Positions 1,541-60,999 of a DNA stretch of 63,141 nucleotides are shown here, piece after piece (within the stretch, counting starts at the first letter, position 1; each line of letters opens with the position of its first letter). Source of the DNA: Dongiaceae bacterium (lineage in GTDB: Bacteria > Desulfobacterota > Desulfuromonadia > Geobacterales > Pseudopelobacteraceae); the NCBI GenBank assembly GCA_035571735.1, contig DATNCC010000174.1, forward strand, positions 1 through 63,141, given 5' to 3'. Under the pieces are notes generated by a model. The model did not search any database, was not told the origin of the DNA, and saw nothing but the letters and a program-made list of their open reading frames with translations. Position numbers and translations under genes: made by a program.

Positions 1541-3997
1541 ATGACAATACGATTCAAGCTAAACGCCAACATGGCTCTCATGGCTATCGGCATACTTGTT
1601 ATAGCAGGATTCAGTCTTTCCGGCATGAAATTCGTTCAGAACAAGCTCCATGTTCTTACCGAGAAATCGACCCCCTACCAGCTGAAAACCATCGCCCTGC
1701 AGCGCACCCTTCAAGAACATATTTCAAACCTGCTCAAAGCCTCCGCCGCCACAACGGAAGCAGAAATAAACCTGTTACGCGATGAATCGGGCAAGAGCCT
1801 TGCTGAAGTGCGCAAGGTATCATCCGAGGTTGCAGCACTCAAGGGTGGTGGCGAAAACGGCACCAATCTACAGGAACTGGAGAAGATCACCAGCGATATT
1901 ATTTTGACCGTTACCGAGCGAATAAAAGCCGAGACCGCAGGAAAAGCCGCCCATGACCTGATTAACGAAAAATTGAGGCGTGTCCAGATCGGACTGGATA
2001 AAATGGCCGGCAATATGAAGGGCAACCAGAAAAAACTGGTAGGCGAACTTTCATCCTCCAACGACAGCGTTAAACGCAGTTCCATCAAGAACAATCTTAC
2101 CCAGGGCGTTATCAGCTCCCTGAACGAAATCAAGGTGGCCCTCCTCGAAATTGCCGCCGCCGACCAGAAAGCCCAGATTGATGCCTGTGTCGCCCGGTTC
2201 AATTCTGCTGCACAAGCATCGACAAAAAACCTGTTCATGCGCACGGAGAAAAACACTCCGGTAGGCAGGGAGATCACCGCGGTCATCAGTGATGTGACAA
2301 AAGGAGTCACAGGAGCAGGGGGAATCGCCGAATTAAGGACTGAGGCGCTGATTAAAACCGATGAAGGCACCAGAAGCAAGTGTTCACATGAAATCGGCAC
2401 ATCGGTACAGAAAATTGTCCGCCTGATCGGTGTAGTCGGCGAATACGCCGCTAAGGCGAACGAGAGTTCAAAGGAAGATGGCAGGAAGTTCGACAAATCT
2501 CTGGAAAGCTCCGTCATGCTTAGCGACTATCTGTCGGGTAACACGGAACTCATAAGTTATGGCGGCAGTATCAACGATTCCATCAATAACATGTTCTATG
2601 GCCGCACCGCTGCAGAGCTTGATTCCGCTAAAAACAGGGTATCATCACAACTGGGCAAGGCTACCACACTGCTTACGACACGCATGAAGAACATCGAAGG
2701 GGCCGGCGGATTGGCTACACTCCTTCGTGAAGTTCAGACTACACTCATATCCACCAACGGAGCCTACGACAAGCTGAGCCGCATCATCGTGGTCAACAGA
2801 CAGCTTGTCGATCTAAACGGCAAACTGAAAACCCTGGTTATGGAGCAGCGCAAGGAGGGAGAAGCCGGCATGACCTCCGCACGCATAGATCAGGAGAACG
2901 CCGTCAAGTCCGTCAACAAGGTCTTCCGCTCCAGCATCATCGGAGTGTTTGTCATCGGTCTGGCGGTGCTGGTCATCGGAGTGGCTTTCAGCGTGATCGT
3001 GGGACGATCCATCACCAAGCCGGTACTGGAACTCAACCAGCTGGCCGAGCGTTTCGGCAACGGTGATTTCAAATGCAACATGGACGCATCCCGCAGGGAT
3101 GAATTCGGTCAACTGGCGGGGCATTTCAACACGGCATCAGCCCGGATCCGGGACATCGTCGTCGACCTCGCAACCGCCATAGGGCAGCTCAAGTCCAGTT
3201 CGGACAAGTTGAGCGGAACGTCGGAACGGCTTCGCCAGGGGGCACAGGAGCAGTCAGCCCAGGCCGAACAATCGGCCACGGCGCTCGAAGAGGTCAGCAG
3301 AACCGTAGTAGATGTGGCTCAAAACGCCGGACAGGCCGTAACGGTGACCCGTGACTCCTCTTCGGTCGCCGCGCAGGGTAAGATAACCGTCATGGAGGTT
3401 GTTGACGAGATGAACCAGATCGCGCAGTCGGTTGGTGAAACCGCGGATGTGGTGCAGAAACTTGGCGACAGTTCCGAGCAGATCGGCAGCATCGTCGACG
3501 TCATCAAGGACATCGCCGACCAGACAAACCTGCTGGCGCTCAATGCCGCCATTGAAGCGGCCCGGGCCGGAGAATCAGGCATGGGCTTCGCTGTCGTGGC
3601 AAATGAAGTCCGAAATCTGGCTGGCAGAACCACCGAGGCGACCCGGGAAATTGAAGAGATGATCAAGACGATCCAGTCGGAAACCGCCAATTCCATCCGG
3701 ACCATGAACCATGGACGCCAACTGGTTGGCAGAGGGGTCGAGCGGGCCCAGAACGCTCAATCGGCGCTGGAGTCGATTGTAACCGCCTCGGATAGCGGCG
3801 CAGTCATGGTGGAATCCATCGCCACCGCCTCGGAAGAGCAGTCGGCAGTTATCAGGGACGTTGCTGCAGGGGTTGAACGCATGGCAGAGCTGACCAGGGG
3901 AGCTGCAGACGACAGCAGACATATATCGGCGGAAGCCGGGGATTTATCACGCATTGCCGAAGACCTCGGCCGTAAGGCGGCCTGGTTCAAGTTTTGA
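1541..3997 (+). CDS. methyl-accepting chemotaxis protein with a large (~440 aa) helical periplasmic sensor
   Basis: TM segments near aa 10-30 and aa 465-490, followed by HAMP. Conserved MCP signalling hairpin [37 protein letters not shown]. Confidence 0.9.
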
Positions 3998-4046: not shown

Positions 4047-4412
4047 ATGAAGCGACTGATTTTTACCGCGAGCCTGATTGTCCTTGTCGTCGGAACCGTG
4101 TCCCCAGCCCGGGCGGAACTCAAGACCATCGGAACCGGCGCCAACATGAATGTCGATATTACCGGTTTCCCCCCCGCCATGAAGGAAATTTACCCGCTTT
4201 TTGTAAAAAAATGTATCAAGTGCCACGGCATGGACAGGACTTTTGTCACCATCCAGACCGGTATGACTCCATCCGGTTCGGTATTCGACAATGCCGCGGT
4301 TGATGCGTACGGCTCCAAAATGCTCCGCAAACCGGATGCCGACATGACCAAGCAGGATGTAAAGAAATTCATGGAACTTATGAAATTCATGCTTGATGAA
4401 GCAGCGAAATAA
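4047..4412 (+). CDS. small periplasmic monoheme c-type cytochrome
   Basis: ATG at 4047 preceded by AAAGGAGAGG. Signal peptide MKRLIFTASLIVLVVGTVSPARA; single CIKCH motif; 121 aa. The track ORF's upstream extension overlaps the MCP 3' end and was dropped. Confidence 0.75.
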   Translation: MKRLIFTASLIVLVVGTVSPARAELKTIGTGANMNVDITGFPPAMKEIYPLFVKKCIKCHGMDRTFVTIQTGMTPSGSVFDNAAVDAYGSKMLRKPDADMTKQDVKKFMELMKFMLDEAAK

Positions 4413-4470: not shown

Positions 4471-5811
4471 ATGAAGATTATTACTTCCGGAATGCTGCTC
4501 CTGCTGGGGGGTTTCGCAACCTCTGCAATCCTGTTATTGCCGGATCCCGCTCAAGCGATCCCTGCGTTTACCCGTCAATTCAAGACGGAATGCTTCACTT
4601 GCCATACGATTTTTCCCGAACTGACCGAGCAGGGCGATAACTTCAGGAGAAATGGCTATGTCTGGCTGGAAACCAAGGGCACAGCCAAGCCTGCAGCAAA
4701 AAAAGATGAAAAAAAGGATGGCAAAAAAGGGCTCAACGAGCGGGAATATCTTGTCCTGTCGAGCCTGCCTGATTATGTCCCGTTATCAATAATCGGCACC
4801 TTTAATGCGTCTTATGCGGATAATCGTCCGGAAAATGAAGGCAACCGGTTTGATCTGGCGACAAGAGCCGTAGTGCTGGATGCGGGCGGTAGTTTTAACG
4901 ATAAAATGGGGGCATGGATAAGCTACAACCTGTTTTCGGAAGGGATGTTCAATCATGTCACCGGCGGCTCCGCCCTGAATGCCAATGTCCCCTCCAATAA
5001 CATCCCGGATATTAACGAGGCGTTTGTCCAGGCGCGTCATCTGTTCGATTCTCCTGTAAATGTCAAGGTTGGCCGTTTCACACCTACTCTCTCCCTCTGG
5101 AAGACAACCAACAAGACTTCTCTGGCCTCCCCCATGGCTACAACCAGCTATCGGGTTGGTGATTCACCATTTTATGTCAATGCCGCGACTGACGGGGCGG
5201 AGTTGAATTCGATTCTCGGCGGGCGACTGGCTGTGGCTGCAGGTATGGTCAAGGTCAAGGATCAGAGGAATCTTTCCGGCTACGGCAGCATCCAATACAA
5301 ACTTGGCGGGGCTGATTTTGAAGGGCATGAAGCTGCTGTCAATATGGACGCCGAAGAAAGTATTTTTGACTATCTGACCGTCACACTTGGCGGCTATGGA
5401 TATGCCGGCAGTAATAACCCCGGTGCGTTCAGACAGTTGAACAACTTTTATCGCTACGGCTTTGAAGGGGATGTCCGATACCAGAAATACAGGGTAAAGC
5501 TGGCCAGTGCCTTTGGAACGGACGACAATTCGTTAGTATCGAACGCTTTCCCGAACGGTGGACAATGGATCAATAAAAATTCACAGGTCTATGCCGCAGA
5601 AGCGCTTTATCTCTTCGGTTCGCAATTCATTCCCTCGTTCCGGTTTGAATACGAAGACAACGGGACTACCAATACCCGCCGCTACATCCCGACTTTGGCA
5701 TATGCAGCACTCCAGAACGCCAAACTCGTTCTCGAATACAAGCGGGAAAACACCTCCGGCAACAGCATGGACAACAACACGGTCAACCTCGCTCTTACGG
5801 CGACCTTTTAG
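4471..5811 (+). CDS. outer-membrane beta-barrel protein with N-terminal CxxCH (fused cytochrome-porin architecture)
   Basis: ATG at 4471 after GGAGGG. Signal peptide ends ...PDPAQA. CFTCH lies within 15 residues of the mature N-terminus, followed by a Lys-rich linker KPAAKKDEKKDGKKG. About 400 aa of beta-strand-like sequence ends in LALTATF (OMP beta-signal with terminal Phe). Confidence 0.7.
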   Translation: MKIITSGMLLLLGGFATSAILLLPDPAQAIPAFTRQFKTECFTCHTIFPELTEQGDNFRRNGYVWLETKGTAKPAAKKDEKKDGKKGLNEREYLVLSSLPDYVPLSIIGTFNASYADNRPENEGNRFDLATRAVVLDAGGSFNDKMGAWISYNLFSEGMFNHVTGGSALNANVPSNNIPDINEAFVQARHLFDSPVNVKVGRFTPTLSLWKTTNKTSLASPMATTSYRVGDSPFYVNAATDGAELNSILGGRLAVAAGMVKVKDQRNLSGYGSIQYKLGGADFEGHEAAVNMDAEESIFDYLTVTLGGYGYAGSNNPGAFRQLNNFYRYGFEGDVRYQKYRVKLASAFGTDDNSLVSNAFPNGGQWINKNSQVYAAEALYLFGSQFIPSFRFEYEDNGTTNTRRYIPTLAYAALQNAKLVLEYKRENTSGNSMDNNTVNLALTATF

Positions 5812-5866: not shown

Positions 5867-7648
5867 ATGAATTCCATACGTTTCACTTGCTTGGGAATTT
5901 TATTTCTTTTTTTAGCGCTTTTGAGCGGCTGTGGCGACGGTAACTCAGGGACCTCGGGCAGCAGGGCAACTCTCAAAATATCCCAGCTGTGTATTGATTG
6001 TCACGCCGGGGCCAACGATCCGGTTGTCGCGACTGCAAAGATAACCGAAGAATGGAAAATTTCGAAACACAATTCGGAAATAGTCGGCGCCGGCTGCATT
6101 GACTGCCATGAGCCACAGGTTGGCCATCCGAATGTTTGCAGCAGGTGTCACGGTGGCGCTCCGTCGGCATTCAACGCAACCGGGACCGATGTGGTTCGCA
6201 ACCCTGATGCAGAAAAAAAATGCTACAAATGTCATGGCGCAATAACACTCAGTCCGGGGCATTTTACCAACAATACCTCTGCAAATGCACCAGGTTCGTT
6301 CGTCTCCAGAAACTACGCAAACAAATGCAGAGCCTGTCACAACCCCCACGACGTGACCACGTTGCTGCCGATCAACAGGGATTGGGCAAAGTCCGGTCAT
6401 GGCAACCCAAATGGCGCGGCCTGGCAGCACTATGATTTTAAGGGGGCGGATCGCCTTGCGTGCATGCGTTGTCATACCGCCACCGGATACATTAATTTTA
6501 TTACCGGTGCAGAAGGGGCTACAGCCTCGAAAATGTGGACAACTACCACCGACAAGACCAAGGAAGTACTTTCCTGTATTGCCTGTCACGAAACATACGA
6601 CTTTAAAAACAGTGTCCGCAAAATCGGAGCTTTTACAGCTCCGTACAATGCTCCTAACACCTTCCCCAATGTAGGCGCTTCCAATCTCTGCATTGCCTGC
6701 CACTCCGGCCGCGAGAACATGGCTTCCATCCTGGCCATGACCAACATGTCCGGTGCGACCAGCCCCACACTCAAGAATTCGCACTATATGGCCGCGGCCG
6801 GTCTCATGTACATGACTACCGGTTTTACCAATTTCACCACCATGACTACCAAAGCTGCCGCCACCAATACTTATGGTGCCTCTTACACCATGTATTACGG
6901 ATCGGGGACGGCTCCGACAGGCAACATCAGCAGTACACACCGCAAACTGGGTACGCCGATGATAAATGGCGACAGTCACAACCCGGCCGCCTTTGTCCCC
7001 GGCAGTTTCGATGCAGACGGTCCTTGCGTCACCTGCCATATGAACGCCACGGGTCAAGCCGACCGCAAGACCAGCCACACCTTTGGCATTAACGCAAATG
7101 CCTTTAATCAACTTTGCATCAAGTGCCACGGTGCAGAGGGAACCACGACCCTTACCGGCGACAATTTTGAGACCGTCTTCATCGAAGAGCAGTCACTTGT
7201 GTTCCAGAATGCACTCAGTCTGGCGATTAAATTACTGAAAGACAACTATGGCATTACCTATGATTCTGCAACAAATCCTTATTTCTTTAATGCGAACGGC
7301 AAGAGCGTTACCAACTGGAAGCGTGGCCGCAGCAATGCCGAGGCAAAGAAACTGATGGGAGCCTGCTACAATATCAACCTCCTGAAGAGGGAGCCGGGAG
7401 CCTATGCCCATGGCCGCACCTTCGTGCGCCGGTTGATCTATGACACCATCGATTACCTTGATGACGGCAAGATCAACATGTCAACCGGAGCCACGGCACT
7501 CGCATCCGGAATGAAGGGCCTGAACAATGCCGTGATCTATGTCAAGGGGACGTCGGCAAATGACCCCGCCACTACGGCAAGCTACACCTATCTGGCTGGA
7601 TACAACCGCACCTCGGGGGCCTGGAACACACCTTATGAAAGGCCCTGA
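5867..7648 (+). CDS. decaheme c-type cytochrome lipoprotein
   Basis: ATG at 5867 after AGGAGA. Lipobox LLSGC. Ten CxxCH motifs: CIDCH x2, CSRCH, CYKCH, CRACH, CMRCH, CIACH x2, CVTCH, CIKCH. 593 aa. Confidence 0.85.
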   Translation: MNSIRFTCLGILFLFLALLSGCGDGNSGTSGSRATLKISQLCIDCHAGANDPVVATAKITEEWKISKHNSEIVGAGCIDCHEPQVGHPNVCSRCHGGAPSAFNATGTDVVRNPDAEKKCYKCHGAITLSPGHFTNNTSANAPGSFVSRNYANKCRACHNPHDVTTLLPINRDWAKSGHGNPNGAAWQHYDFKGADRLACMRCHTATGYINFITGAEGATASKMWTTTTDKTKEVLSCIACHETYDFKNSVRKIGAFTAPYNAPNTFPNVGASNLCIACHSGRENMASILAMTNMSGATSPTLKNSHYMAAAGLMYMTTGFTNFTTMTTKAAATNTYGASYTMYYGSGTAPTGNISSTHRKLGTPMINGDSHNPAAFVPGSFDADGPCVTCHMNATGQADRKTSHTFGINANAFNQLCIKCHGAEGTTTLTGDNFETVFIEEQSLVFQNALSLAIKLLKDNYGITYDSATNPYFFNANGKSVTNWKRGRSNAEAKKLMGACYNINLLKREPGAYAHGRTFVRRLIYDTIDYLDDGKINMSTGATALASGMKGLNNAVIYVKGTSANDPATTASYTYLAGYNRTSGAWNTPYERP

Positions 7649-10636: not shown

Positions 10637-10797
10637 ATTGGAACTAGTCTTATAACGTACCATACGGAATATTTCAACCATTTTTTTACGAATTTCCCGT
10701 TTTACTCACACGCATGCCTGATTTTCTTCTACCCTATCGGTCCATTTTCGGATATTCTAATAAATTCGAACCACGTCATTTAGCATTAAGGTTAAAA

Positions 10798-11115
10798 ATG
10801 GAACACTTTATTCTGGAAATCAGCGAAGCGGAAATCAAACGGGAACGGGAGAAATCGAGGGAACTTCGCAAGAGCCGCTGGTGGAAGAACCGCCTGGCCC
10901 TGGGGCGTTGCCACTATTGTAACGGGAGGTTTGCTCCGGAAGAATTGACCATGGATCACCTGGTCCCTGTGTCGCGCGGCGGCAAGGCATCTCGTAACAA
11001 TGTGGTTCCGGCCTGTAAGGAATGCAACAGCCGCAAGAAATATCTGCTTCCGATCGAGTGGGAAGAATATCTGGACAAGCATGAGAGTCCGGTACCGGAG
11101 TTAACGAGTGCATAA
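10798..11115 (+). CDS. small HNH endonuclease
   Basis: CHYCNGRF...MDHLVPVSRGGKASRNNVVPACKECNSRK, i.e. HNH with two CxxC pairs. 105 aa from ATG 10798. Confidence 0.8.
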   Translation: MEHFILEISEAEIKREREKSRELRKSRWWKNRLALGRCHYCNGRFAPEELTMDHLVPVSRGGKASRNNVVPACKECNSRKKYLLPIEWEEYLDKHESPVPELTSA

Positions 11116-12550: not shown

Positions 12551-12859
12551 ATGATTCGATCTGTGCTTGTTTTTGTGATGGTACTTGGAATTTCTGGAAT
12601 ATCGATGGCTGCACAGGAAGAAAAAATAGTCACCAGTGGACCTGAAATCATTATACACAAAATGGATGGTAAGCCGCTTGAGTTAAAACACTGGGAACAT
12701 CAGAAGAGAATGAAAAAGGGTGGGTGTACCAATTGCCACCGAGGGGAAATCGGCAAGATCGAAGGGTGGAATAAGGAATTTGCCCACATGGTATGCATCC
12801 CGTGTCATGACCTTAATGACAAGGGTCCTGTCAATTGTAAAGAATGCCACAAAAAATAA
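12551..12859 (+). CDS. periplasmic triheme cytochrome c (c7/c3 family, PpcA-like size)
   Basis: Signal peptide, then three CxxCH motifs (CTNCH, CIPCH, CKECH) in an ~80 aa mature protein. Confidence 0.8.
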   Translation: MIRSVLVFVMVLGISGISMAAQEEKIVTSGPEIIIHKMDGKPLELKHWEHQKRMKKGGCTNCHRGEIGKIEGWNKEFAHMVCIPCHDLNDKGPVNCKECHKK

Positions 12860-53611: not shown

Positions 53612-55600
53612 CTATGCCAGCCTGAAACGCCCCACAATCCGCTGCAGATCGGTGGCCAGTGACGAGAGCTGTGATGCTGCCGCAGCCGTATCGTGAGCGC
53701 CGCGTGCGGTGTCGTGTACCACGTCGGTGATCTGATGGATGTTGCTGGATATTTCGCCGGTCACCGCGGTCTGCTCTTCGGCGGCTGTGGCGATCTGGTG
53801 GACCTGCATGGTGACGTCGTTGATAGCCTCAACAATCTGCTGCAGCGCTTCACCCGACTTGCGCGAGCTCTCCATCCCCTTTTCCACCTCTCTGACCCCG
53901 TTTTCCATGCTGCTTACGGCACCCGCGGTTTCTCCCTGGATGGCCTTGATCATCCCGCCGATTTCCCTGGTAGCCCTGGTGGTACGGTCAGCCAAAGCAC
54001 GAACCTCGTCGGCAACAACCGCGAAGCCCCGCCCCTGCTCGCCAGCACGGGCGGCCTCGATCGCAGCATTCAAGGCCAGCAGATTGGTCTGATCGGCGAT
54101 GTCCTCGATGGTGCCGACGATTGCGCCGATCTGGTCGGATCTGGCACCCAGACTTTCGACGGTACGGGCGGACTCCTGAACACGCTCGGCGATATTTTGC
54201 ATCCCCTCAAGTGTTTCCTGTACAACCGCAGCTCCGCCGGTTGCGGTCTGATTGGCGCGGCTTGAGATTTCCGAAGCCAAAGAACAGTTATGAGATATAT
54301 CGTTTGATGTTGCAGACATCTCCTCGCTGGCGGTAGCCACGGTTACGGACTGGCAGGCCACCTCCTCGGCTGCGGTGGCGATCTGCTCGGCGGTAGAATG
54401 CAGCTGGTTTGCGGCCGCCGATACCTGGCCGGTATTGTCTGCTACCTGCGAAATGATGGAATGGATATTGTCGACAAAACGATTGAACCAGTGAGATAAC
54501 TCTCCGAATTCATCATTACGGTCGGTATCAAGACGTTTTGTCAAATCACCTTCACCCTCGGCGATATCCTTGAGCATGTGCAGCATTCTGGAGAGCGGGG
54601 CGGTAATGCTTATTACGACCAGCAGCCCCAGAACAATGGCAATGCCACCCAAAATGACGGAGAGAGCAATGCTGAAAACCAGTGCCCCCCTGGCTCCGGC
54701 GGCAAGTCCGTCGGCGACAGTCACGATATCCTTGGCAAGCATGTCCTCTTCTTCCTTCATGATGTTGATTTTTTCTGTGGCAGCCGAGAACCAGCTCTCT
54801 GGCGTGATTCCGAAGCCACCGGCCATCCCCTTCGCCAGAACGGCACCGCGCAGATCCTCGACCTTCGAGAAAGCGGGGGACTTGCTCTTGTCGTCAAAGG
54901 CGACTTGTTCTGCCGAAGTTGCATACTGTCTGAACAGATCAAGATAGTTTTTTTGAGCCGACAAGATCGAGAGAACCCTTTGAAACGCTTCATCATTGAA
55001 ACTGTCGGCAGCCAGGACGGCGTTCAGGGTAGCACGTTCCTTGCCGTTTTCTTCCTTGGCCTTTACGAAGGCATAGTATGTTGTAGCCGCTCTCATGATC
55101 TCATGGCTTTTGCTGGTGGTTGAAACCGCGGCAACTACGTCAATGTAGGAACCGATCTGCTTTGTATAGAACGAGAAAGAATCCTTCCCCTCTATCTTGA
55201 GCGTGTCGATTGTGCCTCGAACATCCTTCAGTGTTTCCAGGCCACCGTTTGCGGCGTCAAGCGGCTTTTTGACATGGTCCAACGCTGCACTGTTAGCTGT
55301 CACATACTCTTTGACCTTCACAATTTCACCGTTAACCAGTTCGCGCTGTTTTGCGAGCTCGTCCCGGAATTTTTCTCCCTTGGAGTTGATGAAACCGGAT
55401 GAGAGCCCCCGTTCCTTCTGAATCTCATGGGAAAGTGACCCGACCCGAACGGCAAGTCCGGTCAGAGTACGTGTCTCACTGACACTCTCAAGAACGTGGT
55501 ATTTTTCGACGACCTCTCGGGTTGAAAACACCAGCAGGCCAATTACAGGAGCCAGAACCATCAGAAGCAACTTCAAGCGGATACTCATATTTTTCAACAT
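53612..55600 (-). CDS. methyl-accepting chemotaxis protein with periplasmic NIT (nitrate/nitrite-sensing) domain
   Basis: NIT-type pattern [31 protein letters not shown] between two TM segments. HAMP and MCP hairpin [37 protein letters not shown] follow. Confidence 0.85.
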
Positions 55601-58631: not shown

Positions 58632-58689
58632 TCATTGAGCAGCTTTGAGGCTGCTTTTCGGTATCACGACTACACACCAGGAGGAAGAA

Positions 58690-60999
58690 ATGGGACTTTC
58701 CAGACGGGATTTTCTGAAGGCTACCGCAGCTGCCGCGGCATTTGCCGCTGCCGGAGCAGCCGTATTGAAGCCGAAGGCATCCGAAGCGGCTGAGGCCGGG
58801 ATCAAGTGGGACAAAGCTCCCTGCCGTTTCTGCGGAACCGGTTGCGGCGTGCTGGTCGGGGTCAAGGAGGGCAAAATAGTCGCCACCAAGGGCGATCCGG
58901 CAGCCCCGGTTAACAGAGGGTTCAACTGCATCAAGGGATATTTCCTCTCCAAGATTCTCTATGGCAAGGACCGACTGACCAAACCGCTGATCCGCAAGGG
59001 AGACAAGATGGTTGAGGCTTCCTGGGACGAGGCCATGACCCTGATCGCAAGCAAGTTCAAGGAGGCCATCGAAAAGCATGGCCCCGATTCGGTTGCGATC
59101 TACGGTTCGGGACAGTGGACCGTCTTCGAGGGGTATGCCGCCAGCAAGCTTTTCAAGGGTGGAATCGGCACCAACAATATCGAGGTGAATGCGAGGCTCT
59201 GCATGGCGTCGGCTGTCACCGGCTTTATGACGACCTTTGCCAGTGACGAACCGATGGGATGTTATGACGATCTGGACCTGGGCGACACCTACTTTCTTTG
59301 GGGCGCCAATATGGCCGAATGCCATCCGGTGCTCTTCTCCCGCCTGATCGACAATCGCCTGAAAAACCCCAGGGTCAAGATCATCGATTTCGGCACCCGC
59401 CGTACCCGCACCTCCCAGATGGCTGACAAATACATCAAGTTCAAACCCCAGACCGACCTGGCGCTCCTCAATGCTATCGCCCATGTCATCGTCAGGGATA
59501 AGCTCTACGACGAAGCATTCATCAAGAGCCATGTCGTCTTCAAAAAGGGAAAGACCAACATCGGCTACGGCATGGAGGACAAGTTCAAGTTTGCCGACGA
59601 CCCCAAGCCGATGACCTTTGACGAATACAAGGAGTTTCTCAAAACCTACACCCCGGAATATGTTGCCGAATTGTCGGGGGTGCCGGCTGAAACAATCGTC
59701 GAAATGGCGCATCTCTACGCCGACAAGAGCCGCAAGGTCAACTCTCTCTGGACGATGGGTTTCAACCAGCATACCCGCGGCACCTGGGTCAACAACCTGG
59801 CCTACAACGTCCACCTCCTGACCGGCAAGATTTGCAAACCGGGAGAAAATCCGATGTCGCTGACCGGCCAGCCGTCAGCCTGCGGCACCACCCGCGAGGT
59901 CGGCACCTTTACCCATCGCCTGCCGGCCGACATGGTGGTTACCGATCCCGAACACCGCGCCAAGGCGGAAAAAATCTGGGGTATTCCGGCCGGCAAGATC
60001 CCGGCCAAACCGACCTATAATGCTACCGAAATGTTCCGCGCCCTCGACCGTGGCGACATCAAGGTCGTCTGGACCCAGGTCACCAACCCCTTCCAGTCGC
60101 TGCCGAACCTGAACCGCTACCGCAAAGGCGCCCGCAAGGGAGATGGGCGTTTTATCATTGTCTCCGACATGTACCCGACCCAAAGCACCGAAGTTGCGGA
60201 TGTGATTCTGCCGTCAGCCTCGTGGGTCGAGAAGGAGGGTGTTTTCGGTAACGCTGAGCGGCGTACCCACCAGTGGTACAAGATGGTGGAACCGCCCGGA
60301 GAAGCCAGGAACGACCTGTGGCAGATTATCGAGCTGGCCAGACGATTGGGGCATGGCAACCTCTTCCCCTACAAATATATAGAAAAAGAAATCTGGGAAG
60401 AGTACCGCAAATTCGGTGAGGGGCAAGGGAAGGATCTTGCTCCCTACGAAACCTACACCAAGACGCGCGGACTGCGCTGGCCGGTCGTGAACGGCAAGGA
60501 AACCCTCTACCGCTACGCCGAGGGGCATGACCCGTACGTCAAGACCGGTGAGGGAATCAAGTTCTACAAAAACAAGAAAGACGGCGGTAAGGCGGTCATC
60601 TGGGCACGCCCCTATGAACCTGCGGCAGAAGCCCCCGACAAACAGTATCCCTTCTGGCTTTGCACCGGGCGCGTCCTGGAACACTGGCACACCGGCACCA
60701 TGACCGGCCGGGTTCCCGAGCTCAAACGGGCGTACCCGTCGGCGGTCTGCGAGATGCATCCCGATGATGCCAAAAAACTCGGCATTGAGAATCTCCAGAA
60801 GGTCAAGATCACATCGCGGCGCGGCACTATCATCTTGCCGGTGGATCTTAATGGTCGTGGCAAGGCCGAAGAAGGCAACATCTTTGTAGCCTTTTTCGAT
60901 GAAAACAAGCTGATCAACGAACTGTGCATCGACGCATATTGCCCGATTTCCGGCGAGCCGGACTTTAAGAAATGCGCCGTCAAGGTGGAAAAAGTTTAA
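58690..60999 (+). CDS. napA: periplasmic nitrate reductase catalytic subunit
   Basis: Tat signal MGLSRRDFLKATAAAAAFAAAGA, N-terminal 4Fe-4S motif CRFCGTGCG...C, and a molybdopterin oxidoreductase body. Confidence 0.9.
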   Translation: MGLSRRDFLKATAAAAAFAAAGAAVLKPKASEAAEAGIKWDKAPCRFCGTGCGVLVGVKEGKIVATKGDPAAPVNRGFNCIKGYFLSKILYGKDRLTKPLIRKGDKMVEASWDEAMTLIASKFKEAIEKHGPDSVAIYGSGQWTVFEGYAASKLFKGGIGTNNIEVNARLCMASAVTGFMTTFASDEPMGCYDDLDLGDTYFLWGANMAECHPVLFSRLIDNRLKNPRVKIIDFGTRRTRTSQMADKYIKFKPQTDLALLNAIAHVIVRDKLYDEAFIKSHVVFKKGKTNIGYGMEDKFKFADDPKPMTFDEYKEFLKTYTPEYVAELSGVPAETIVEMAHLYADKSRKVNSLWTMGFNQHTRGTWVNNLAYNVHLLTGKICKPGENPMSLTGQPSACGTTREVGTFTHRLPADMVVTDPEHRAKAEKIWGIPAGKIPAKPTYNATEMFRALDRGDIKVVWTQVTNPFQSLPNLNRYRKGARKGDGRFIIVSDMYPTQSTEVADVILPSASWVEKEGVFGNAERRTHQWYKMVEPPGEARNDLWQIIELARRLGHGNLFPYKYIEKEIWEEYRKFGEGQGKDLAPYETYTKTRGLRWPVVNGKETLYRYAEGHDPYVKTGEGIKFYKNKKDGGKAVIWARPYEPAAEAPDKQYPFWLCTGRVLEHWHTGTMTGRVPELKRAYPSAVCEMHPDDAKKLGIENLQKVKITSRRGTIILPVDLNGRGKAEEGNIFVAFFDENKLINELCIDAYCPISGEPDFKKCAVKVEKV

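Follow-up and report, generated by a model that had tools for sequence, protein, structure and literature searches.

A probable Cyc2-family fused cytochrome–porin encoded between two conserved cytochrome genes in iron-reducing Geobacterales

What would a porin with a heme-attachment motif of its own do in a lineage of anaerobic Fe(III) reducers? The question is raised by an open reading frame (ORF) of 446 aa at 4471..5811 (+ strand) of a 63,141-nucleotide contig, DATNCC010000174.1 of assembly GCA_035571735.1, which is filed as Dongiaceae bacterium and placed by GTDB in the Geobacterales; the whole of this stretch is referred to below as the window. An earlier note, made from the letters alone, had read the gene as encoding a Cyc2-like fused cytochrome–porin. 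Our analysis, which draws on the ORF and its translation, on homologues and on profile links to canonical Cyc2, leads to the same identification: the product is very probably a member of the Cyc2 family, combining one heme motif with an outer-membrane barrel. The reading was borne out by the spacing of the signature motif, a 16-strand structural model, profile homology in both domains, and the FeGenie call on an orthologue from Geobacter bemidjiensis. Judged by its sequence, the protein is a member of a divergent clade specific to Geobacterales/Desulfuromonadales, apparently the one that FeGenie labels Cyc2 cluster 3.

The reading frame is intact (446 codons), and its ATG is preceded by GGAGGG 8 nt upstream. 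A longer ORF from a TTG at 4393 was considered and judged unlikely, given the position of the ribosome-binding site and the near-invariance of M1 (at least 90%) across the 34 homologues, 39–81% identical to the window protein, that make up our conservation alignment. Reading by eye of the n-, h- and c-regions and of an A-x-A site delimits a Sec signal peptide at residues 1–29 (4471..4557, + strand), MKIITSGMLLLLGGFATSAILLLPDPAQA, with cleavage after AQA and IPAF following; it is made up of MK, a 20-residue hydrophobic core, and the AQA–IP junction, and residues 4–22 were modelled as a helix by AlphaFold2 (AF2). The −1 residue A29 is invariant in the alignment, as is the mature N-terminus I30-P31-A32-F33. 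The mature chain opens with a monoheme cytochrome segment (residues 30–65; 4558..4665, + strand) of the form IPAFTRQFKTE-CFTCH-TIF-PEL...FRRNGY, assigned from its invariant residues, its Cyc2 layout, and hhalign. Its heme-attachment motif CFTCH (residues 41–45; 4591..4605, + strand), read directly from the DNA, sits 12 residues into the mature chain and holds the only two Cys of the protein, in keeping with the claim of a cleavable signal peptide followed within ~15 residues by a single CFTCH; the string that the earlier note quoted for this region, IPAFTRQFKTECFTCHTIFPELTEQGDNFRRNGY, is exact.

The heme segment is also the best-conserved part of the family, forming a block of ~35 residues within which A29, I30, P31, A32, F33, R35, E40, C41, T43, C44, H45, T46, P49, L51, E53, G55, F58, N61, and V64 are invariant in the 34-homologue alignment. 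Conservation of CxxCH in orthologues had been proposed as a check on the reading, and a wider sample was available for it: 135 homologues were found among 5.8 billion proteins, and the 120 listed ones were scored for motif and C-terminus. Exactly one CxxCH, in the frame A.P.F.R-5aa-CxxCH-3aa-P.L, was found in 120/120, down to 34% identity, and this constancy excludes chance occurrence or decay of the motif. We infer that heme c is covalently attached at CFTCH. The heme of cytochrome f is ligated by the N-terminal amino group, and, as a speculation, the invariant mature I-P-A-F terminus of the Cyc2-like protein recalls such amino-terminal ligation.

Behind the heme segment lies a Lys/Ala/Pro-rich low-complexity linker at residues ~66–99 (ETKGTAKPAAKKDEKKDGKKG...; 4666..4767, + strand), delimited by its sequence and by low values of the AF2 confidence score pLDDT; the Lys-rich linker that had been described after the heme motif is indeed seen, at residues ~66–96. 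Across the family, the linker between heme segment and barrel spans 31–100 aa. The remainder of the chain (residues ~100–446; 4768..5808, + strand) is predicted from AF2, Foldseek, and phmmer to be a 16-strand β-barrel porin domain with a C-terminal F β-signal. A barrel of ~400 aa ending in LALTATF had been claimed; the ending holds, its terminal F being invariant in the 34/34 aligned sequences and present in 118/120 homologues, whereas the length comes to ~345 aa. A closed barrel in the predicted structure had been named as a further check, and the AF2 model, built on the family alignment, has 16 long strands, with a mean pLDDT of 69 and values mostly of 75–92 in the barrel. Searched against the PDB with Foldseek, the model came closest to trimeric porins of 16 strands, OprP (2o4v) and OprO (4rjx) among them at E 2e-10. 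Among PDB sequences, phmmer matched OprO (4rjw) at E 5e-5 over residues 190–289, and PF07396 (Porin_O_P) is precomputed on three homologues.

How closely does this layout follow Cyc2? Members of that family have been defined by a signal peptide, one CXXCH, AXPXFAR[Q/K][T/Y] five residues upstream, PXL four downstream, and a length of at least 365 aa (Keffer et al., PMC8406198). According to the same study, the consensus motif differs between clusters, the Cyc2 porin has 16 strands with structural homology to OprO/OprP (4RJW, 2O4V), the same structural homologues are found for Cyc2PV-1, and iron oxidase activity has been shown for one representative per cluster, in all three clusters (PMC8406198). 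The window protein, with A-I-P-A-F-T-R-Q-F-KTE-CFTCH-TIF-PEL, has exactly the Cyc2 spacing; A, P, F, R, and Q match, while T stands in place of A and F in place of [T/Y]. The PXL element after CFTCH is PEL, with P49 and L51 invariant, and the 446-aa length exceeds the 365-aa minimum. To these features can be added the result of an exhaustive search in which the family profile, a hidden Markov model, was run over 1.84 billion representatives: it gave 3182 matches at E <= 1e-3, of which 686 reached <= 1e-10 and 102 reached <= 1e-30. Many matches of ~400–450 aa cover the N-terminus plus barrel profile positions ~117–441, so that homology between the family and canonical Cyc2 extends along the whole chain. 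Specifically, canonical FAR[QK][TY] proteins were retrieved at E 1e-26 to 1e-104, and 109 full-length proteins among the top matches comprised 108 with exactly one CxxCH and 62 with the strict Cyc2 motif; motif intermediates, such as PAFARQYKTEC and AIPAFARQYKTEC..., occurred among the close matches. Canonical-motif Cyc2-type proteins were also found by tblastn on plasmids of Ralstonia, Methylocystis, Caballeronia, and Ideonella (e.g. ANPLFARQTGLNCASCHTIYPELTPFGRKFKLTGY). The heme domain aligned with four such proteobacterial proteins at 98.4% probability (hhalign); in those four there is no linker, and ...GY runs directly into the first strand.

Several results nevertheless count against the identification. 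The strict motif PXFAR[QK][TY] was passed by 0/120 family members, compared with 120/120 for A.P.F.R-5-CxxCH, and the barrel alone, aligned with the four plasmid-borne proteobacterial Cyc2-type proteins, was not significant (hhalign probability 1.2%). Neither an invariant Met nor a second His that could serve as distal heme ligand is present in the heme segment of the 34-homologue alignment. The AF2 model has pLDDT <50 for residues 24–46 and 64–102 and contains no heme, so that the heme is not placed relative to the barrel lumen. In addition, the window protein matches no Pfam family (none at E <= 1) and no NCBIfam, and its identification therefore rested on motif, profile, and structure evidence.

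The family is not confined to this contig. A scan of GTDB species representatives yielded 110 relatives, of which 80 were retained as loci for synteny counts. All 80 are named Geobacteraceae, Desulfuromonadales, or unclassified Deltaproteobacteria, and their hosts include Geomonas, Citrifermentans, Geotalea, Oryzomonas, and Geothermobacter; the closest relative in the scan, at 74% identity, comes from a Geobacteraceae metagenome-assembled genome. The Cyc2-type heme-porin family thus occurs in at least 80 Geobacterales/Desulfuromonadales species genomes. Nor is its presence in iron reducers a new observation: in 2020, FeGenie reported cyc2 of cluster 3 from two of them, G. sulfurreducens and G. 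bemidjiensis, and a cyc2 gene from G. metallireducens as well (PMC7005843). The G. bemidjiensis ORF in question, 642555228_3323, starts ...AEAIPAFSRQHKTECSTCHTIYPELNEFGDAFLKNSYVW and was called Cyc2_repCluster3 with a score of 66.2 bits, the cutoff being 27.3 (PMC7005843, Data Sheet 4); an alignment of its ~400 available residues with the window protein gave 40% identity (E 5e-96). Scoring above cutoff with one of the FeGenie cluster models is the recommended way to identify a Cyc2, and the score of this orthologue bears on the window protein indirectly. The earlier note's remark that such a layout is unusual in a metal-reducer context was therefore overstated, with cyc2 on record in Geobacter since FeGenie (PMC7005843) and the family in 80/80 retained loci. 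A separate observation concerns the G. sulfurreducens PCA ORF listed by FeGenie, NC_002939.5_1044 (PMC7005843, Data Sheet 4), which is ~240 aa long and consists of a Cyc2 heme segment, MSAFARKYGMQCDGCH, and a Pro/Ala-rich tail, with no barrel. Lacking the barrel, it is not a fused cytochrome–porin, and the published statement on G. sulfurreducens cyc2 needs that caveat. On Cyc2 function in Geobacteraceae, the literature searched yielded only the FeGenie remark, and Cyc2 is unmentioned in a 2024 survey of Desulfuromonadia cytochromes. What is already known is thus the presence of the Cyc2 family in Geobacter; what is less documented is the failure of the strict motif, the long linker, and a conserved module of three cytochrome genes.

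That module consists of the Cyc2-like gene and one partner gene on either side. Upstream, at 4047..4412 (+ strand), is a gene for a secreted monoheme c-type cytochrome of 121 aa with CIKCH and a signal peptide, in whose family R64 and three Met are invariant; no Pfam, PDB, or NCBIfam assignment was obtained for it. Downstream, at 5867..7648 (+ strand), is a gene for a 593-aa outer-membrane lipoprotein cytochrome of ~10 hemes, with 10 CxxCH and an LSGC lipobox, which corresponds to the adjacent decaheme lipoprotein that had been pointed out before. Its family retains the lipobox C22 in 37/37 members, nine CxxCH are invariant and the tenth nearly so, and its homologues match PF22113 (MtrC/MtrF domain II/IV family) above cutoff. 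Comparison of both partner proteins with PDB sequences gave nothing useful, neither being close to any solved cytochrome structure, and Foldseek with the AF2 model of the decaheme protein returned only non-significant NrfA-like matches.

Synteny was counted by tblastn and blastp of the window neighbours against the 80 loci. A homologue of the small monoheme cytochrome adjoins the Cyc2-like gene in 76/80, and a multiheme cytochrome (MHC) homologue of ~550–780 aa was detected in 74/80 and is adjacent in ~70. Order and strand vary by lineage, with small–cyc2–MHC in the window and in locus L001, MHC–cyc2–small in most loci, and a divergent MHC in Geomonas/Citrifermentans. The window genes are separated by only 58 and 55 nt, no convincing terminator was found between them, and the three seem to make up an operon. 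On the contigs of two canonical-motif relatives that are more distant, no multiheme neighbour is seen; the trio is therefore not a general property of Cyc2 and appears specific to this clade. No description of the three-gene module was found in the literature searched. As a side observation, the canonical-motif Cyc2-type genes on the Methylocystis, Caballeronia, and Ideonella plasmids (L082–L084) carry no annotation beyond 'hypothetical protein' or 'cytochrome C'; behind each lies a gene for a c-type cytochrome of ~200 aa, with a gene for a high-potential iron–sulfur protein (HiPIP) upstream in Caballeronia, a set unlike the Geobacterales trio.

A mechanism can be sketched by analogy with characterised Cyc2 proteins. 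After export by Sec, the protein would sit in the outer membrane as a 16-strand OprO/OprP-like barrel, to which the flexible Lys-rich linker tethers the short N-terminal segment with its one heme. Through the narrow pore, small redox species in solution, above all Fe2+/Fe3+, might reach the barrel-associated heme and trade one electron with it; the heme would then give an electron to, or take one from, the co-encoded periplasmic monoheme cytochrome as the most plausible carrier; the invariant Met residues of this small cytochrome are candidate axial ligands. At the membrane, the decaheme lipoprotein could additionally donate, accept, or store electrons. Both iron as the substrate and physical contact among the three proteins are what we infer, and iron exchange with the two partners is advanced here tentatively, as a possibility that falls somewhat short of probable; Cyc2-family identity combined with this mechanism is nonetheless the overall explanation that we favour, with modest confidence. 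Direction is harder to assign. By analogy with the characterised Cyc2 proteins, all of which work this way, Fe(II) may be oxidized or electrons taken up, and this is our leading guess, although we would not call it probable; the outward route, to humics or soluble Fe(III), is almost as likely. For A. ferrooxidans Cyc2, a preprint makes the case that the electron chain is reversible. Three further points tell against iron exchange as proposed: the hosts are anaerobic Fe(III) reducers with no evident use for an Fe(II) oxidase, one heme is by itself too little to connect a decaheme protein on the surface across the outer membrane, and the literature searched held no expression or genetic data on the module.

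The same gene set could instead constitute a new porin–cytochrome conduit, with the decaheme protein at the surface, the tethered Cyc2 heme as a relay within the barrel, and the small cytochrome at the periplasmic mouth, carrying electrons to or from solid minerals or electrodes. This alternative, which we regard as unlikely but the most serious of those considered, would account for the linkage of the three genes in ~70/80 species-level loci despite changed gene order, and it gains from the invariant lipobox Cys and ~10 conserved hemes of the decaheme protein as well as from the above-cutoff matches of its homologues to the MtrC/MtrF domain II/IV family. The flexible linker of 31–100 aa, which the four canonical-motif proteobacterial proteins do not have, could give the heme domain freedom to shift inside the barrel or pass through it. 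Dimensions are the difficulty. In Mtr and Pcc systems, the porins are heme-free barrels of 20–26 strands that sheathe a periplasmic multiheme (8–10 heme) cytochrome. A 16-strand barrel is much narrower than such sheaths, OprP-like pores being only a few angstroms wide (PMC8406198), and ~35–40 angstroms is too far for one heme. Moreover, surface exposure of the decaheme lipoprotein is only putative, its model has no significant Foldseek match, and the multiheme neighbour is missing from the two more distant canonical-motif relatives. In its fullest form, the proposal would make the Geobacterales trio one physical outer-membrane complex and would add a third kind of trans-outer-membrane electron conduit, one whose porin brings its own relay heme on a flexible tether and which serves bidirectional exchange with minerals, electrodes, or partner cells rather than oxidation of dissolved Fe2+; this version we consider rather improbable.

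Far less probable is that the protein is mainly an OprO/OprP-type anion channel, for phosphate or polyphosphate, with the heme segment as a regulatory or redox-sensing appendage. The phmmer match to OprO, the rank of OprP and OprO among the structural matches, and PF07396 on three homologues would all fit such a channel, and a gene for a PstS-type periplasmic binding protein (PBP_like_2, Pfam PF12849; 7858..8616, + strand) lies directly after the decaheme gene. That gene, however, adjoins the module in only ~6/80 loci, compared with ~70–76/80 for the cytochrome genes, and for this reason the phosphate-porin reading was set aside. It is further weakened by the heme segment being the most strongly conserved part of the protein, by the window protein lying below any Pfam threshold for Porin_O_P, and by the published finding that genuine Cyc2 iron oxidases also resemble OprO/OprP (PMC8406198). 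An ordinary heme-free porin with an incidental or vestigial CxxCH, to which the lack of any matching cytochrome family model and the low AF2 confidence of the heme segment might be thought to point, is scarcely credible when the two Cys and the His, the former the only Cys of the window protein, recur without exception in 120/120 homologues, the most distant of them 34% identical, and lie in the best-conserved 35-residue block, which is common to characterised heme-binding Cyc2 proteins.

Beyond the module, the window holds other genes that touch on redox metabolism or sensing. An 818-aa methyl-accepting chemotaxis protein (MCP; 1541..3997, + strand), with Pfam HAMP and MCPsignal domains and a large unassigned periplasmic region, is encoded by a gene that ends 49 nt before that of the small cytochrome and is possibly co-transcribed with it. 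Its counterpart in L001 is 79% identical and occupies the same position, and matches to the MCP signalling domain lie near the module in ~33/80 loci, mostly of Geomonas and Citrifermentans; this proximity may reflect a link of the module to redox or iron taxis, or simply synteny at the level of the lineage. About 5 kb downstream of the module, at 12551–12859 (+ strand), is a gene for a small, secreted, PpcA-like triheme cytochrome c7 (CTNCH, CIPCH, CKECH). Further away are genes for a chemoreceptor with a NIT (nitrate/nitrite-sensing) domain (53612–55600, − strand) and for a 784-aa molybdopterin oxidoreductase with Fe4S4, Molybdopterin, and Molydop_binding domains (58645–60999, + strand), which could bear on nitrate-linked metabolism of the host. 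A stand-alone HNH endonuclease gene (133 aa; 10714–11115, + strand) stands among housekeeping genes.

The identification has practical consequences, in that cyc2 is a widely used metagenomic marker gene for iron oxidation. A clade of cyc2 that is standard and syntenic in iron-reducing Geobacterales warns against equating every cyc2 match with an iron oxidizer. At the same time, the three genes of the module, which are amenable to genetics in Citrifermentans bemidjiense or Geomonas, for instance, offer a concrete target for studying the role of Cyc2 in reducers. If the three proteins did act as one unit, they would represent a compact type of conduit beside the Mtr and Pcc systems, and if they formed a complex, it would explain the role of 'Cyc2' in iron reducers.

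Three known systems invite comparison. With OprO/OprP (PF07396; 4rjw, 2o4v), the window protein shares the 16-strand fold and weak sequence similarity over residues 190–289, and they are among its top-ranked structural matches; unlike the window protein, those porins have neither heme segment nor linker, and the conserved neighbours of the window gene are cytochrome genes, not phosphate-uptake genes. With the Pcc systems of Geobacter (OmbB-OmaB-OmcB, ExtABCD) and MtrCAB of Shewanella, the window cluster shares the grouping of a barrel for the outer membrane with a periplasmic cytochrome and a multiheme lipoprotein, as well as matches to MtrC/MtrF-type domains in homologues of the lipoprotein; with Pcc it also shares the host lineage. 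It departs from both in that its barrel has 16 strands and a CxxCH of its own and its periplasmic partner has only one heme, and the window protein showed no sequence similarity to MtrB or OmbB models in Pfam and NCBIfam scans.

The closest correspondence is with Cyc2 itself, as represented by A. ferrooxidans Cyc2, Mariprofundus Cyc2PV-1, and Leptospirillum Cyt572 and covered by FeGenie clusters 1–3. The window protein has the same signal peptide, single CXXCH ~12 residues into the mature chain, A-x-P-x-F-x-R five residues upstream, PXL downstream, and ...F..NGY tail, followed by a predicted 16-strand OprO/OprP-like barrel with a C-terminal aromatic residue in a protein of ~440 aa overall, and profile homology extends over the full length. 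The differences characterise the clade. In place of the consensus F-A-R-[Q/K]-[T/Y], its members have F-T/S-R-[Q/A/E]-[H/N/F/Y], and they therefore fail the strict filter used for the 2021 Cyc2 tree; a Lys/Ala/Pro-rich linker of 31–100 aa distinguishes them from the four canonical-motif proteobacterial Cyc2-type proteins, and their hosts are anaerobic Fe(III) reducers. Partner genes differ likewise: the Geobacterales proteins are accompanied by a 120-aa monoheme cytochrome and a ~10-heme lipoprotein, whereas the proteobacterial examples adjoin annotated c-type cytochrome and HiPIP genes, and the partners of A. ferrooxidans Cyc2, according to the cited literature, are rusticyanin and Cyc1.

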